NCBI GenBank assembly: GCA_046597055.1
Contig: JBKJLC010000037.1
Coordinates: 32,001 to 96,000, forward strand
Direction of reading: 5' to 3'
Length of the DNA stretch: 64,000 bases
From: Kofleriaceae bacterium
GTDB taxonomy: Bacteria > Myxococcota_A > Polyangia > Haliangiales > Haliangiaceae
The position numbers were made by a program. Shown here piece after piece: positions 39,001 to 57,000 of the stretch. Position 1 is the stretch's first letter, and every line of letters starts with the position of its first letter.

Positions 39001-42000
39001 ACATCGCGATGTCGACACCGTGCTGCTCACGACGGGCCTCGCACTCGGCATGGAGGGCGCCGACCTCGCGGACCTCTACTATTGCCGGTGGCCGGTGCAG
39101 GAGAACGCGTTCAAGGAGGGCGCCGCGGTGGGCCTGAGCGGAGCATCGCGGGAACTGCGGGCGGATCGTCGCCAACGTCGCGGTGGTCACCGAGCTGGAG
39201 CGGCTTGTGGCGCCTGCCGCGCGTGATGGCGAGGCCATGCGCGAGCTCCTCGCCGAGGAGCCAACCCTCGAGGCCAGGGCGACCGAGCGTGCCGCCGAGC
39301 AGCGACGGGCCAACGCCGCGCTCGCCACGCGACGCGAACGGCTCGACGCCCTCATCGCCCACGGCAAGACCGGCGGTAAGACCTTCATGCGGGTCGCGCT
39401 CGATCACCAGCAGGCGCTGGTTCGCCGAGACCGCCACGCAGCTCGCGACGAAGACGAGCCCGGCACTCGACACGAACCGTGCACGGCGGGCCGGACTCGA
39501 CGAGTATGGCGCCGACATCGCCGCACGCCGACACCGCCTGGCGTCGCAGCGCACCATCCGCCAGCTCGACACCACCCAGGACACGATCCTCACCGCCACC
39601 AAGCTCACCGCGCTCCAGCTCATCTCGTTCGTCCTCCGCGAGTACCTGCCGACGATGCCGTTGGCCGGCGACGTTCGTGCAGCGGGTGCTGTCCGTCCGC
39701 GGCCGCAAGGAGACGTCGCTGGACCAAGAGCTGGTCGTGTTCTATGAGAACCCCCGCGACCCAGCCGTCAACGACGCGCTTCGTGATGCGTGCGACCGAC
39801 TCAACCGGCGCAAGCTCGAGCGGGCGGATCGCCGGCTGCGCGTCGCCGTCGAGCCGCCGGCTGCCCGGTTCGAGTGATCTGATCTCTCGTTACCGGAGCT
39901 GGCCGAAGTCCCTGTCAGAAGGGCCAGGCGGTGGCGGGGGTCACGGCCACGAGGTCGAGGCCCGTGCCGTCCTGGTTCGCCTGGTACACCGCCACGGTCC
40001 GCGACGAGCCCGCCCGGATCGCGATCAGGAGCTCGCGACGCCCGTCTGCGTCGATGTCGGCGATGCCGAGTACATCGATCGACGTCTTGCCGCGGCCGTG
40101 CCAAGCGAACTGACGCTCGCATCCGTCGGCGCCACGCCGCTCGCCTCGAACCTCCTTCGCCGCTGTCGCGCCCTCGAGGAATGCGGCGAGCGCGAACGCC
40201 TCGTCGCGGCCGTCGCCGTCCACGTCAGCGATCAGCCTGCCCTTAACCAGGCATGACTCCGCCACCGCGATCTCGATCGCAGGCCGGCTGGGATCGGCGA
40301 CCACCGCGACCGCAAGGCTGCAGCCGCCGGCGGCTGCGCACAGCCAGTCGGCGACGTCCTCGCCGTCCTCGCCAGGGCGATCGAGTGTGCACGCACCGCG
40401 GCCGCTGTCGTTGAACTTGCCGACAAAGCCCATCGGCTCGGCCGCAGCCTCATCGATTGCCGTCACCAAACTCCCGCGCCGTGCCCCCTCGAAGCCGAGG
40501 ACGGTGAAGCGCTGCGGCGCCTCGATCAGCGGAGCACGGACTACCTCTACCACCGAACTCCACCAGTTCCGCTGCACCAAGAAGCGTGGAAACAGGTGCG
40601 CTCGGCTCAGGTGCATGTTGAGGCAGACCTCGCCGACCAAGTAGCGTGGCCCCTGCGGCGGTACCGGCATCGCAGCGGGCAGCGGGCCTGCCTCGACGGG
40701 CGTCGCATCGCGCGGCGGCGGTCTCGGCAGCGCCGTCCGAGGTGCGCAGCCGGTGGTCGCGATCGCGGCCACGCTCAGGGCCACCGTAGAGACGGAGAGC
40801 ATGCGGCTGATACTACTTCAACCTCGCGATCGAAAAACGCATGAAGCCGGCCAAGCTCGAACCTTGCGATGAAGAACACAACGCGATCCACGGTGTGTCG
40901 AGCACGTCGAGCACATCAGGTGCGCTTGACCGGGCTCTCGGGCCCGTGCCACATGTAATTGGGAACCACCATGGACTACGGCTACGTCCCGGACAGAGAC
41001 CCATACCTCAACCGCCTCCGCGTAGTAGTCGACCGTCGTCCCAACACGGCCATGGTGAGTGTGCGGAGCGTCCGCAGTCTCCAGGCCTTCATCCAGCACC
41101 TCGATCGGGCGTCCAGCGTCACGCGGCCGATCGATCACATGGTCGTTGGCGGCCACGCCAATCGCTGGGCCTGGCAGGTGAACCTGTACGGCGCGAGTCA
41201 GGGTACGACCTTCGAGACCATCGTGGACTCGATGGCAGTTCCTGCCAACTCGATCGTGGTGCCAGATGCGGTGATCGGATTCGTTCCGGACCAGCCCAAT
41301 CCATCGGAGCACTTCTTTCATATCAAGGGCTGCAATTTGGGCAAGGCCCCCGCATTCCTCGAAAAGTTGAGCGAGGGACTCGGCGGCCGTCTCAAGATCA
41401 CCGCGCCCAAGCACTTCCATGGCGCTAGCACCCATGGGCGACACCTCTTCGAGTGGATGGCATACGAGTTCGTCATCTTCCAGAAGTCGAGACTAACCAC
41501 CAGGGCCGCACTGGCGGCTGCCTACCACGCAGCGCCATTGGTACTGATCGACGGCCGGACGAAAGTGCCCGAGGCGATGTGGGACAGGTGGCTAAGTCGA
41601 TTCCGAAACATCAATAGAACGCAAAGCGTTCCTGTCTGGTCGAGGCTTGGCGTCTCGCTCGGCCGTCGCGGACGCGTCGAGACGGCGACAGTCCTAACAG
41701 CGACCAGCCCTACGCTAGTCCGTCGGAGCGTCCGATACCCTTCGGAGGCCGACATCCCGACCGATCTGAACGAACGGATGGCTGAGCTGAGGCGGCAACT
41801 GTTGCTCATCGCCATGTACGAGGACACTCACCCCTTCCCAATGTTCAAGAGGCTTGGCTACGCTTCCTTCGAAGACATGATAGATGGCTTGGATTGGAAG
41901 ATTTTCACCAGCCGTCAGGGCGTGTGGCACTTGCTACATTTCGCCGGCAGTCGTTATGAATACCAATTGATGGTGCCGATCATGGATCAGTCCGGTAGCC

Positions 42001-54000: not shown

Positions 54001-57000
54001 CAGTCGCACGTCCCGGTGCACTGGATCCCGTTCCAGGCGGTGGCGCTGCCGCCGGCCACCAGCGGACAGGTGGTGCTGGAGATGGCGTCGCTCCTCGCGC
54101 CAGAGGGTCCGCCCGGCGCAGCGCTCCACGAGGCGCTGCCGGCCGGCAAGATCTTGCGGCCGTCATCGGTGGCTGGGGCGCCGTACCGCGTTCGCGAGGA
54201 AGAGGTTCCGCGCGAAGGCACCCACGTCATCCGCTTCGCGCGCTTCGCGCGCTCCAGCAACGGCGCCAGCCACCTGTGGGTGACCCGCAAGCGCGTCACC
54301 GGACGCGGCGAAGGCGGGAGCGGCCTTCGCTTCGACCGCACCATCCCTCTCGAGACCGTGGTGCCCGGGACCGATCCGTGAGGTGTCTCGGTCCTGACCC
54401 ATGCCCTTGACTCATACCCCGGGCTCGTCGGCGCCCTCGGTCGTGCTGCCACGATGCTGCCACGCAGGACGGCATACGGTGGGCAAGGCCGGGTCAGTTC
54501 GGGATCCAAGTGGTTGAAAGCTGTGCAAGCGGCCGTCGGAAATGGCTTCCCAAATAACAGGCAGTAGCCCTTCGGCCCGGCGTCTTGCGCTCGACGCCCC
54601 GCCCAGCCGACCTGCCCAGGCTTCACCGCTTCGGGTGAGCGTTCAGCCAGGGAAAGATCTGGGTAGCGGTGGCCGTGATGAAGAGCGTGTGCGGGCCGCC
54701 GACCACGGTCCATGACTCCACGTCGATGCCAGTCGGGCAACTGTCGTACGTCCGGGTGGTGGTCTCGGCGGTGGCATCGCCGATGAGGTCGATGGGCGCG
54801 CCGGGCGTCGCGGTGGTGGCGCAGCCATTGTAGGCGGCCCAACGCTGGTCGCTGCCCAGCGCCGATGGATACGGTGCTGCGGTGCCGTTGACCGTCGTCG
54901 AGCCACCTTCGTAGGCGATCGTCCGGTCATCGGTGCCGTGCGCGTGCAGCACGCTCACGGGCTCCGAGGGCGCACAGGCACCGGGATCGTTGAAGGTGGC
55001 GCCCCCGATCACGGCAATGGCGGCGAAGCGCCCGGCCGAGGCACAGGCCATGCGGAACGCCATGAACCCTCCGTTGGAGTCGCCGACAATGAAGACGCGG
55101 TCGGGGTCGACGTTGTAGGCGGCGCTGATCTCGTCGATGAGACCGTTCAGGTAGGCAACATCATCGACGGTCGAACCGTAGAAGTTGCAGCACGCGTCCG
55201 TCGCGTTCCAGAAATAGCGGCCGCCCTCGTCGAGCGTGCCGGTGGGTGCGATGAGCAGGAATCCGTCAGTTTCGTAGGCGTACGCCAGCCGCGTGACCCC
55301 GGTCACGTAGGTCGTGATCGAGCTGTAGCCGTGCAAGGCGATGACGAGCGGCATTGGTGTCGCGGCCGAGTAGCTCGACGGCACCAGCAACTCCGCCGGG
55401 CGCGTGCCGCCGAACGTTGTCGGCGGTGCGCCGTCCACCGCCGTCGCGTCGACGGCGACGGCGACGGGGCCGCCATCCACCGCGCTGCCGCCCTCACTCC
55501 CTCCGCAGCCGAGGACCGAGGCCAGCACGAGCGGCACCACCATCACTTCGAAAAAGCGCATCGACCAGGGTAGCACGAGCCACGTCAGCGTCGCGCGCAC
55601 GGTCGGCCCGTGGACCGCCGGCCGGAGCCCGCGCCCGATCTGTACGGAGCAGCGGCGGCTCGCTTCGCTCGCTTCAGCCGCGGCGGGGCAGCAGGACGGT
55701 GAGCTCGGTGCCGTGGTCGGAGCGCACGTGGATCTCGCCGCCGTGCAGGGTCACCAGGCTGTGCACGATCGCCATGCCCATGCCGGTGCCGCCCTCCTTG
55801 GTCGAGAAGAACGGCTCGAACATCCGGGCCTCGACGTCGGGCGGGATGCCGGGGCCCTGATCGCGGACGCGGAGGGTGACGCCGCCGGGCACGGCCGCGA
55901 GGTCGACCGCGACCTGGCCGCCGGTCGGGCTCGCTTCGATCGCGTTGCGGAGCAGGTTCTGCACGACCTGGTGGATCTTGGTCGCGTCGACGTCGGCGTC
56001 GATCTGGGCCGGGGCCGCGAGCTCGATCGTCACCTCGCGCAGCGCGGCGGCCGGGCGCTCGAGCTCGATCACGTGGCGGGTGAGCGCGACCAGGTCGGCG
56101 CTGGTGGTCGACAGATCGGCGGGGCGCGCGAACGACAGGAACTCGTTGAGCAGCAGGGTCAGGCGCGCGATCTCCTGGTGGACCAGCTCGGCCGCCTGCA
56201 GCAGGCGCGGGTCGCTGTCGGTGCGACGCAGGCGGCGCTCGAGCAGCTCGAGCTGCAGCTTGGCCGCGTTGAGCGGGTTGCGGACCTCGTGGGCCAGGCC
56301 GGCCGACAGGGTCCGCATCGCCGCGAGCTTCTCGGCCTGGGCGTTGCGCTCGCGCCGGACCAGGCGCTCCTCGGCCTCGAGCTGGTAGTGGCGCAGCATG
56401 ATCGCCAGCTCCATGTCGAGCAGCTTGTCGACCGACTCGATCGTCTGCGACCGCTCGGTGGTGACCCGGGCCTCGACCAGCCGGTGGAGGTCGCGGCGCA
56501 GCACGTTCATCGCCGTGAACATGTACTGCTGCGGCAGGCCGATCGTGACGTGGCGGCGGCCGATGCGCGACCGCCGCTCGTAGTAGGCCTCGTCGTGGGG
56601 CCCGGCCAGGCCCGACGCCATCCACTCGACCAGCGTGTCCTTGAGCCGCGCGATCTGGGGCGGCCCCTCGGTGAGCGCGGCGCGGGCGCCGTCGTGCGTG
56701 ACCAGGACGTCGTAGAAGTGTTCGGCGACGGCGGGGAGCTGGTCGCGGACGAGCTCGTGCAGGCGCTGCAGCCGGGTGACGTCGGCAGGCCCGAACTCGA
56801 CGTACCGCTTGAGCTCGTCGAGATAACGCACGGGCCCTACGCTTCGCCGGTCTTCCGGGTGACGGCGTCGACCGCGGAGCGCGGGGCGGCGCTGTACTCG
56901 TGCAGCCGGTACTGGATCGTGCGCACGCTGATGCCGAGCATGTCGGCCGCCTTCGAGGTCGAGCCGCCGGTGGCCTTGAGGGTCTCCAGGATCGCGTACT

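Follow-up and report, generated by a model that had tools for sequence, protein, structure and literature searches.

The window analysed here, a 64,000-nt stretch of the genome of a soil myxobacterium, a Kofleriaceae bacterium (C101:32001-96000), raises the question of what a set of giant proteins, most of them without a family name, could build, and how the gene just upstream is connected to them. The survey's finding placed a tight operon at window positions 40971-54381, and this was confirmed. Its five genes, U, A, B, C, and D, all run in one direction on the plus strand and are coupled in translation. The U/A and A/B junctions are 4-bp overlaps, and the B/C and C/D junctions are 3-nt gaps. 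GC3 of A-D is 0.87-0.90, as expected for real genes in a genome of 72% GC, and that of U is 0.77. The head gene U (40971..42110, 379 aa, ATG start) belongs to a small dark family. The operon promoter probably lies in the 168-bp gap (40803..40970) between U and a divergent FG-GAP-repeat gene (39915-40802, minus strand); a scan of this gap for the sigma-70 consensus returned zero sites, a scan that is uninformative for Myxococcota.

Gene A (42107..45505, 1132 aa) encodes the only protein among A-D and U with a Pfam match, a full-length member of the DUF6603 proteins (PF20248; E 4.5e-118, residues 417-982). The searched literature contains no mention of "DUF6603" or "PF20248". Searches of B, C, D, and U against Pfam, NCBIfam, and PADLOC at E≤1 gave nothing beyond one chance-level row, and the Pfam-dark status previously assigned to B, C, and D is upheld: none of the three has a Pfam, NCBIfam, PADLOC, or PDB match. 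The core subunit B (45502..48354, 950 aa) belongs to a nameless family with 859 relatives at E≤1e-5; the 120 listed are all "hypothetical", and none of these has a Pfam domain. The alignment of B contains numerous invariant residues, including a N-H705-E706-M-A-R-E710 block, and its profile has 0 matches in the PDB. The core subunit C (48358..52620, 1420 aa) consists of two folded halves joined by a linker (residues ~561-640) that is variable in the conservation profile. Both halves are predicted by AF2 to fold confidently into shapes without a clear structural match (N-half, pLDDT 83.4 and pTM 0.77; C-half, pLDDT 75.6 and pTM 0.58). Foldseek gives no match for either half at E≤0.001, and VIA-align finds only an FN3-like sandwich (Z 6.7) and a four-helix bundle (Z 8.6). 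The last core subunit, D (52624..54381, 585 aa), has a very large family (5629 representative proteins at E≤1e-3 in a profile search), and its profile also has 0 matches in the PDB. Among 16 D-family proteins of odd length that were scanned, eight carry extra Pfam domains, namely PA14 with discoidin, TIG (two), collagen (two), Hcp, WD40, DUF2934, and, on one relative, a weak bacterial Death-like domain (bDLD1; E 7e-5, below the Pfam cut-off). The cassette proteins are large, soluble, Ala/Gly/Pro-rich, and devoid of enzymatic motifs; inspection of the about 4,000 aa of A-D revealed no transmembrane segment, NTPase motif, or nuclease motif.

The four-gene set is conserved well beyond this locus. 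A paralogous copy reported on contig C188 was recovered by tblastn, with identities of 44% (A), 54% (B), 46% (C), and 52% (D). In a wider search of species-representative genomes, a relative of B was encoded in 220 of 291 pattern-matched stretches, and the best 80 of these 220 loci were kept. A is found in 76 of the 80, C in 72, D in 67, and all four in 66, and the missing genes are explained by contig ends. The A-B-C-D order on one strand, also claimed previously, is kept in 79 of the 80 loci, the lone exception reading B-E-A-C-D (L031). By record titles, the 80 loci belong to Myxococcota, Acidobacteriota, Gemmatimonadota, Verrucomicrobiota, Planctomycetota, Actinomycetota, Chloroflexota, and Nitrospirota, as well as Alpha-, Beta-, and Gammaproteobacteria. 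Cyanobacteria, which the survey also named, are absent from the best 80 loci. Within its own phylum the cassette is patchy (5 of 401 genomes, G000 counted), and several copies per genome occur. The flanks are unrelated housekeeping genes, and neither a secretion-system gene nor a lysis gene accompanies the cassette, which leaves no visible export route. We consider it very likely that A-D form one complex.

The gene preceding A varies in kind. M64 and S8 peptidases, which had been reported in this slot, were both found, and further types are trypsin-like, PhoD-like, M14, tyrosinase, Kelch/galactose-oxidase-like, and DUF4056 proteins. We took the nearest same-strand upstream gene in all 61 rows with a full-length A (60 loci and the window). 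The slot holds M64 in 12, S8/trypsin-like in 12, PhoD-like in 12, a dark family (c15) in three, DUF4056 in two, and tyrosinase in one; the remaining rows are U of the window, one-off dark proteins, or a gene uncalled by the ORF picker. Catalytic motifs are retained in these heads (S8 triad in 5 of 5, GDSG in 14 of 15, HExxH in 15 of 17), and the N-termini inspected carry no signal peptide. The S8 and trypsin-like heads have in common only a C-terminal domain of ~120 aa (hhalign probability 99.3), and both accompany one clade of A N-termini. A docking domain common to the M64, PhoD, and c15 heads, either among themselves or with the S8/trypsin heads, is undetectable. Heads also differ within one genome, with U at the window cassette and a 774-aa dark protein at the C188 copy.

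The type of the upstream gene follows one part of A. In a set of 51 rows, 33 of them labelled with five enzyme types, parsimony requires four type changes, the minimum, on the tree of the N-terminal ~420 aa of A, 12 on the tree of the A body, and 13 on the tree of C. In 300 label shuffles the corresponding means are 17.8, 18.0, and 17.9, and the minima are 14, 13, and 13. AU tests on the A-body IQ-TREE tree (42 rows) reject a single-type clade for M64 (ΔlnL 595, p 2e-59), S8/trypsin (ΔlnL 760, p 2e-5), and PhoD (ΔlnL 884, p 6e-8). Consistent with the trees, identity along A climbs at the start of DUF6603 in all eight examined pairs of cassettes that are close in the core and differ in the upstream gene; in six pairs it rises from 15-43% to a plateau of 55-88%, and in two the climb is weaker, to 40-63%. 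A is therefore chimeric, with a variable N-terminal region (residues 1-~417; 42107..43357) and a conserved body that contains the DUF6603 domain (43355..45052). The module structure and the co-inheritance of enzyme type with the A N-terminus are computed observations. What is new is that the gene upstream of A encodes a leaderless enzyme of changing type, and that this type varies with the first ~420 residues of A alone. Physical linkage alone would carry the 5' end of A along with its neighbour, and co-segregation by itself is no proof of binding.

The survey had described the upstream gene of this genome as an unrelated dark protein with no detectable similarity to the peptidases upstream in other phyla. 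U is no unrelated bystander, as members of its family occupy the same slot in two other genomes (at L090 and L093). U has 16 relatives at 29-45% identity and no match in Pfam or the PDB. The alignment shows invariant H62, E82, H117-x-K-G-C121-N, H148, H150, and E161, and the ESM-atlas neighbours, which are weak, are DUF4347 and Peptidase_C80; by its invariant His and Cys residues U could be a peptidase, which we regard as a lead only. A prediction about U genes elsewhere was tested. In G157, the genome of L090, A-B-C-D is immediately preceded by two U genes in tandem, and the A N-terminus is the sister of that in the window (SH-aLRT 97, 36% identity), while the A bodies of the two group with different lineages. 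In G453, of the same genus, the A that comes after a U gene likewise has an N-terminus of the U type (41% identity), and two [enzyme + A] units precede one B-C-D. The reading frame of the upstream A copy shifts at the junction of N-terminus and body, which could reflect gene decay or a misassembly. In G183, the 17.7 kb downstream of a remoter U relative (27-30% identity) contain no cassette.

Complex prediction suggests how U may be held. U with A residues 1-440 gives a score of 0.63, compared with 0.00 for the best of three controls. Of 157 solved complexes 116 attain the mark for this score, as do 2 of 215 mismatched pairs; with the custom alignments used here, these counts apply only roughly. 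The runs agree on 65% of contacts or more, and pLDDT is 83 or higher for the partner and only 66-68 for chain 1. The predicted contacts fall on A residues 12-43, 64-69, 116-123, 147-149, and 192. This interface is a matter of model confidence, and as a prediction it passes its controls. In addition, four giant proteins (2294-2890 aa) have a DUF6603 body at their C-terminal end, and in three of the four an alpha/beta-hydrolase domain lies upstream of that body, so that the N-to-C order equals the gene order. In other long ORFs that resemble enzyme-A fusions (L076, L043, and L058), the extension lacks Pfam domains, and the starts may have been over-called.

The survey had proposed a multi-subunit machine with a variable enzyme encoded upstream. 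This proposal is partly supported, namely by the conserved multi-gene set of family-less proteins and by a link between enzyme and A that rests on four lines: co-segregation with the N-terminus, recurrence of the U family, the predicted interface, and the enzyme-DUF6603 fusions. We think it likely that the enzyme docks on the A N-terminal region. B, C, and D, together with the DUF6603 body of A, would make up the constant portion of a single large soluble assembly of several subunits, and the first ~420 residues of A would be an exchangeable adaptor for the protein encoded just upstream. The held protein would here be U, with its conserved His/Cys pair, and elsewhere an enzyme without a leader, namely a peptidase (S8, trypsin-like, M64, or M14), a PhoD-like phosphatase, a tyrosinase, or similar. 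The enzyme gene and the 5' third of gene A would form one recombination unit that moves between cassettes, so a given B-C-D machine could be re-armed with a different enzyme. The assembly would carry the enzymes to a site that is otherwise closed to them; the likeliest are the exterior of the producer cell and a target. We infer delivery because the enzyme classes are normally extracellular yet lack export signals, and because D-family members elsewhere bear adhesion-type domains. Taken as a whole, a fixed machine of B-C-D and the A body with an exchangeable head of enzyme and A N-terminus is our best explanation, held at slightly under even chances; extracellular presentation or delivery as its purpose is more tentative still.

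The same genes could instead build an intracellular cage. A-D would then make up a compartment or scaffold in the cytoplasm that tethers dangerous or reactive enzymes by the logic of encapsulins, and the enzymes would stay in the cell. As in Family 1 encapsulins, the cargo is encoded directly upstream or joined to the structural protein at its N-terminus, export signals and membrane parts are absent, and proteases, tyrosinase, and oxidases are of kinds that harm the cytoplasm if free. However, nothing in sequence or fold points to a shell protein, HK97-type or other, heads of 800-960 aa would be very large cargo, and the PA14, discoidin, TIG, and collagen domains of the D family are usual on exposed, target-binding proteins; we regard a cage as unlikely. 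An anti-phage or conflict system of the abortive-infection type, with B-C-D as the invader sensor and the exchangeable enzyme as the killer of the cell, would fit the patchy distribution, the multiple copies per genome, the cross-phylum transfer, the effector-type module swapping, and the weak Death-like domain on one D relative. It is improbable, given that U and A-D have no PADLOC match and that about 4,000 aa of the cassette hold no NTPase or nuclease motif. PADLOC models match only 11 of 140 flank proteins sampled (of 328), nearly all through generic kinase, helicase, MotB, TPR, or S8 domains, and PycTM is the one specific match. Tyrosinase, M14, M64, and galactose-oxidase-like enzymes are not known as common effectors of defence systems.

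The link between head and adaptor might also be an artefact of gene adjacency, with breaks that tend to fall inside A and upstream genes that are functionally untied. Neighbouring DNA is co-inherited by default, and no docking motif is common to all head types. Against this, the break lies at the same domain boundary in all eight examined pairs, the genes are translationally coupled, the slot is occupied in most loci, the predicted U-A interface passes its controls, and enzyme-body fusion proteins are found, and an artefact is slightly more improbable again. Finally, we give very little credence to a structural cell-envelope, surface-layer, or cytoskeletal assembly that the upstream enzymes mature or remodel as neighbours. 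Large soluble Ala/Gly/Pro-rich proteins without enzymatic motifs, the FN3-like sandwich in C, and the fusion of some D-family members to collagen and TIG domains suit such a structure, but the cassette is rare and patchy instead of lineage-wide, signal peptides are absent, and the enzyme type corresponds to one defined region of A, to which U is predicted to bind. Moreover, the hosts are diderm and monoderm (and archaeal, according to the survey) and have very different envelopes.

The exchangeable head has partial parallels in known systems. In the cohesin-dockerin scaffolds of cellulosomes, unrelated catalytic domains have one small domain in common. The S8 and trypsin-like heads resemble this, with a common small C-terminal domain and one type of A end, but signal peptides and cohesin or dockerin matches are absent and the other head types lack this domain. 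T6SS VgrG/PAAR-effector modules and Rhs polymorphic toxins combine a conserved machine with an exchangeable unit of effector and cognate adaptor region. The cassette likewise has a swappable head module, and several heads per genome are possible. However, A-D have no sheath, tube, baseplate, or Rhs domain, the cassette is present in phyla without T6SS, no immunity gene lies beside the enzyme, and the heads are large extracellular-type enzymes, not small toxins. The sole T6SS link of the cassette family is a single D-Hcp fusion (P0161).

In Family 1 encapsulins, according to PMC11664910, N-terminal fusions end up in the lumen. The same source describes features that the cassette has as well: a cargo gene just upstream of the structural gene, or an N-terminal cargo fusion, and contact through the N-terminal part of the structural protein, which on the cassette side is predicted. 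A-D have no HK97-fold or Linocin-type signal. An encapsulin is made from one ~30-kDa shell protein, whereas the cassette has four giant subunits; the encapsulin pocket takes a short peptide, whereas the adaptor spans ~420 residues and the cargo is far larger. Tc (ABC) toxins are, like the cassette, very large leaderless soluble multi-subunit assemblies with a variable enzyme. Unlike them, A-D have no VRP1, TcA, SpvB, TcdB_mid, or RHS match, and the variable enzyme is the C-terminal tip of TcC in Tc toxins and a separate upstream gene in the cassette. TcB-like and RHS genes occur near two of the loci (L028 and L049), on other strands or as separate genes.

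Five plus-strand open reading frames make up the operon: U at 40971-42110, A at 42107-45505, B at 45502-48354, C at 48358-52620 and D at 52624-54381, with products of 379, 1132, 950, 1420 and 585 aa, respectively. These positions, like those given in the survey, count along the window, which is 32001-96000 of contig C101. U and A, like A and B, overlap by 4 bp, and 3-nt gaps separate B from C and C from D; thus, U-A-B-C-D is a single translationally coupled operon. With its frames co-directional and coupled, the survey's finding of an operon at 40971-54381, containing a cassette in the order A, B, C, D, stands. 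A matches Pfam DUF6603 (PF20248) at residues 417-982 (E 4.5e-118; 395 bits against a gathering cut-off of 27). B, C and D were described in the survey as dark, and they indeed find no match in Pfam, NCBIfam or PADLOC; nor does U. None of the five proteins has a convincing transmembrane segment (top 19-residue hydropathy 1.98), and Walker A and HExxH motifs are absent from all five. B contains an invariant block at residues 692-729 (N692, E697, H705, E706, E710, E715, R721 and W729; consensus ...GLNHEMARELLWNEYPTDQRG...), from which HExxH is likewise absent. A scan with the sigma-70 consensus, which is uninformative for Myxococcota, gave no site for an operon promoter, and terminator-like sites are no commoner than in shuffled sequence. 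A divergent FG-GAP-repeat gene lies 168 bp away from U. GC3 is 0.87-0.90 for A-D versus 0.77 for U, and the GC content of the window is lowest at 40001-42000 (0.639 versus ~0.72), the stretch of U and the gap preceding it. This composition fits U being a more recently acquired piece.

The paralogous copy noted in the survey on a second contig of the genome, C188, is confirmed, with identities of 44% (A), 54% (B), 46% (C) and 52% (D); upstream of it lie a 774-aa protein without a Pfam match and an ankyrin-repeat protein. Related loci were drawn from a single genome for each species; of 291 stretches matched by pattern, 220 carry a gene for a B relative, and the best 80 of the 220 were used. Counts within these 80 are 76 for A, 72 for C, 67 for D and 66 for all four together, the remainder being cut by contig ends. 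The conserved order reported earlier holds as well, since A, B, C and D follow one another on one strand in the window, on C188 and in 79 of the 80 loci. The sole deviant, L031 (10001-22827), reads B, a DUF4056 head gene (E), A, C, D. Among 8000 candidates scored, 859 B relatives were found at E<=1e-5, and the 120 matches listed include no Pfam domain and no name but 'hypothetical'. A D profile retrieves 5629 representative proteins (50%-identity clusters) at E<=1e-3, 2401 of them at E<=1e-30. Within the phylum of the window, the cassette occurs in 5 of 401 sampled genomes, this one included (4 of 339 of good quality); there it is rare, patchy and accessory.

In the related loci, the same-strand gene immediately before A, hereinafter the head, usually encodes an enzyme of 500-960 aa. 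Heads include S8 subtilases, trypsin-like proteases (often two in tandem), M64 peptidases, PhoD-like phosphatases and DUF4056 proteins, and further a tyrosinase, M14 carboxypeptidases, Kelch or galactose-oxidase-like proteins and dark families. Among 61 rows with a full-length A there are 12 M64, 12 S8/trypsin and 12 PhoD heads, 3 of a family designated c15, 2 DUF4056 and 1 tyrosinase, so the variable upstream enzyme (M64, S8) recognized in the survey is real; in the other rows, the slot is taken by the U of the window or by a one-off protein, or crude ORF picking overlooked the gene. Catalytic motifs are kept (S8 triad in 5/5, GDSG in 14/15, HExxH in 15/17), and no signal peptide is seen at the head-enzyme N-termini inspected. 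A docking domain common to all heads was sought by hhalign among the S8, trypsin, M64, PhoD and c15 families and rejected: the sole common part is a C-terminal domain of ~120 aa in the S8 and trypsin-like heads (probability 99.3), and an HMM of this domain finds no additional carriers in the loci.

The head and the first ~420 residues of A, the proposed adaptor, are one exchangeable module. Single-linkage clustering lumped all A N-termini together, and trees were used instead, covering 51 cassettes, 33 of them assigned to one of five enzyme types. The enzyme type changes four times, the minimum, on the tree of the A N-terminus, compared with 12 times on the tree of the DUF6603 body and 13 times on the C tree; shuffled labels give ~18 changes per tree, with minima of 14 (A N-terminus), 13 (body) and 13 (C). 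AU tests on an IQ-TREE body tree (42 rows) reject an M64 clade (dlnL 595, p 2e-59), an S8/trypsin clade (dlnL 760, p 2e-5) and a PhoD clade (dlnL 884, p 6e-8), the groups having been set by the neighbour gene, yet after a FastTree tree had been viewed. In pairs of cassettes with close cores and different upstream genes, identity along A climbs at the start of DUF6603 in 8/8 cases, at residues ~417-470 of the window's A. In six pairs a level of 15-43% gives way to a plateau of 55-88%; in two the climb is weaker, up to 40-63%. Taken together, the trees, AU tests and identity profiles therefore define gene A as a chimera whose break point is the domain boundary.

Four giant proteins, P0301-P0304 (2294-2890 aa), have the DUF6603 body as their C-terminal end. 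Near residue 1000, about 1,000 residues before the body, three of the four carry an alpha/beta-hydrolase (PGAP1/Abhydrolase_1-like) domain; one of the four has apolipoprotein-like helical repeats. Because the hydrolase domain precedes the body, these three giants repeat the gene order, enzyme first and body second. Candidate enzyme-A fusions at the loci L076, L043 and L058 were not counted, the extensions of these long ORFs being without a Pfam domain.

The U family follows the same rule. In a large protein collection U has 16 relatives at 29-45% identity; none lies in the 80 loci or in five Acidobacteriota genomes tied to them, and of 301 genomes searched around an acidobacterial carrier, 2 have U relatives. 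In the genome G157, a tandem pair of U genes sits directly upstream of A-B-C-D. The A N-terminus of G157 pairs with that of the window as its sister (SH-aLRT 97), and at 36% identity each is the other's best match. The bodies fall in separate clades, that of the window with L007 (66%) and that of G157 with L049 and L050. As predicted, a U-type head thus stands beside a U-type A N-terminus. In G453, of the same genus, locus L093 (G453:C20:92001-105000, 492-12504) has a U gene and then an A whose N-terminus is of the U type (41% identity), in the order U, A (copy 1), PhoD, A (copy 2, complete), B onward. Because PhoD and a second, complete A come after the first A, two heads precede a single B-C-D. 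The reading frame of copy 1 shifts exactly at the N-terminus/DUF6603 junction, and this copy may be a decaying gene or an assembly error. G183 encodes a more distant U relative (27-30%) with no cassette nearby.

The contact between head and adaptor was modelled from our own alignments of A(1-440) (50 rows) and U (18 rows). The predicted complex scores 0.63, compared with 0.00 for the best of 3 controls. Solved complexes attain the score mark in 116 of 157 cases and mismatched pairs in 2 of 215, counts that hold only roughly because our own alignments served as input. Runs share at least 65% of contacts, with partner pLDDT of at least 83. The predicted contacts of A lie on its first helices (residues 12-43, 64-69, 116-123, 147-149 and 192), and those of U at residues 155-157, 177-179, 209-237 and 347, distant from the invariant H62 and C121. 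The head therefore probably docks on the N-terminal region of A.

The alignment of 18 U-family sequences has H62, E82, H117-x-K-G-C121-N, H148, H150 and E161 invariant. In clan CD cysteine peptidases, the catalytic His precedes the catalytic Cys, each following a beta-strand. ESM-atlas neighbours of U are DUF4347 (30% of cluster members, 0.87) and Peptidase_C80 (13%, 0.86), under the tool bar of 0.9, and the 'GCN' of U is like C80 motifs. The His-then-Cys order and these neighbours suggest that U is a C80-like clan CD cysteine peptidase; this stays a lead, because Pfam gives nothing consistent across the 18 members and the PDB profile search gives no match.

The cassette proteins, and the system as a whole, fall outside every described family that could be tested. 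Residues 1-575 of C yield a predicted model with pLDDT 83.4 and pTM 0.77, and residues 630-1420 one with pLDDT 75.6 and pTM 0.58, consisting for the most part of long helices; a variable linker joins the two halves. Foldseek against PDB gives best E values of 0.86 and 0.84 for the two models, none at E<=0.001. VIA-align against 48,161 chains returns an FN3-like sandwich (top Z 6.7; 83-88 residues, rmsd 2.5-3.3) and, over 92 residues, a four-helix bundle (Z 8.6; rmsd 2.4); each lies at or under the noise level of the tool itself ('common'). PDB sequence-profile searches give no match for B, the C-terminal half of C, U or D, and nine weak rows (best E 0.1) for the N-terminal half of C. The ESM atlas places C among unnamed clusters only. 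No paper in the library searched mentions DUF6603 or PF20248.

Extra domains occur in 8 of 16 odd-length D-family members scanned. P0202, P0259, P0287 and P0250 have PA14 with discoidin or TIG in front, or collagen repeats behind; such domains are usual on exposed binding proteins. In P0161 (716 aa), no stop separates the D part from a T6SS Hcp domain (residues 567-701; Pfam E 4e-21), the Hcp portion starts with its own Met, and the identical 716-aa sequence is present in two assemblies. The heads belong to classes normally acting outside cells, yet they are leaderless. These features of the heads and the D family fit an exposed, target-binding, enzyme-carrying particle.

The survey's observation is thus confirmed, and its interpretation, a cargo-handling, toxin-like complex, is supported in part and is now more specific. 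The best composite explanation is a core machine with an exchangeable head and adaptor by which enzymes are carried, which we advance with slightly less than even confidence. That its purpose is extracellular presentation or delivery is possible, with the balance tilting against it. Under the fullest proposal, leaderless, fully folded enzymes would be picked up through a cognate adaptor on the DUF6603 subunit, then be presented or delivered extracellularly or onto other cells, along a route without known secretion systems, and the enzyme heads would be swapped between phyla like plug-in modules. No export route is visible, and such an undescribed, very widespread machine, taken with its novel route and plug-in heads, is on present evidence rather unlikely. 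Caging of enzymes would equally fit the arrangement of the genes. Excerpts of one source (PMC11664910) give an upstream cargo gene or an N-terminal fusion as the loading logic of encapsulins; here, too, the cargo would lie upstream or be N-terminally fused, and would be held by the N-terminal side of a structural protein, as predicted. The likeness is in logic only. A-D have no Pfam match to the HK97-fold shell (clan CL0373), the PDB profiles of B, C and D give nothing significant, and the predicted C models, the only folds made, lack a clear structural match.

Known delivery and defence systems differ from the cassette. Pfam at E<=1 finds no VRP1, TcA_TcB_BD, SpvB, TcdB_mid or RHS repeat in A-D, unlike a Tc (ABC) toxin. 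No sheath, Hcp tube, VgrG spike or baseplate match exists in U, A-D or the window neighbours, so that the likeness to T6SS or contractile injection is confined to the Hcp fusion of one D relative elsewhere, P0161. A phage structural module was rejected: the lone relative among 2.9 million IMG/VR contigs is a 48-residue edge fragment, and the best BFVD match of the C N-terminal half by Foldseek has E 0.79. A role in defence is the weakest of the named options, as PADLOC-DB 2.0 gives 0 matches for U and A-D; 11 of 140 sampled flank proteins do match, nearly all through generic models and domains, which amounts to no defence-island signal.

Each cassette devotes ~12 kb of conserved coding sequence, in thousands of lineages and at least nine bacterial phyla, to proteins with no assigned function and no solved relative. 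The head/adaptor rule offers a testable design, namely which protein pairs with which and where specificity sits, and separates fixed genes from exchangeable ones. If leaderless enzymes leave cells through the machine, it would represent a new principle of protein export or delivery; if it cages them, a new class of protein compartment. Either would account for the large 'secreted-type' enzymes without signal peptides in soil bacteria. Cultivable carriers are Verrucomicrobium sp. BvORR106 and BvORR034, Variovorax humicola KACC 18501 and Bradyrhizobium sp. AZCC 1578. Public sequencing runs with a match are three soil-metagenome DNA runs of one study, with no RNA run among the matches listed.

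The outer flanks of the loci consist of unrelated housekeeping genes, and nothing downstream of D is conserved across loci, one Polyangiaceae clade excepted. In the window, a respiratory cluster at 24572-37310 encodes a nitrous-oxide-reductase-like protein (nos_propeller + COX2), a HemN-like radical SAM protein and three multihaem cytochromes (MtrC/MtrF-like; NapC/NirT-like; 822-aa c7/c3-type). Between the cytochrome genes and the operon, 37419-40802 holds small ORFs without a Pfam match and an FG-GAP-repeat protein (minus strand), and possibly marks the border of an inserted island. SpvB, TcdB_toxin_midN and FG-GAP (TcB-like) genes at L028 639-4499 (minus strand) and an RHS-repeat gene at L049 3-2414 lie a few kb upstream of those cassettes, which may be chance. 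On the 3' side of D, 54623-58906 (minus strand) encodes an esterase/PHB-depolymerase-like hydrolase. It also encodes a protoglobin-histidine kinase and a receiver-domain sigma-54 activator, both of which have relatives downstream of the cassette at L027. The Polyangiaceae clade (L029, L030, L033, L070 and L081) has an extra 1.3-2.6 kb between A and B and, directly after D, a gene of 640-957 aa whose product has a YbaB-like domain at its N-terminus.
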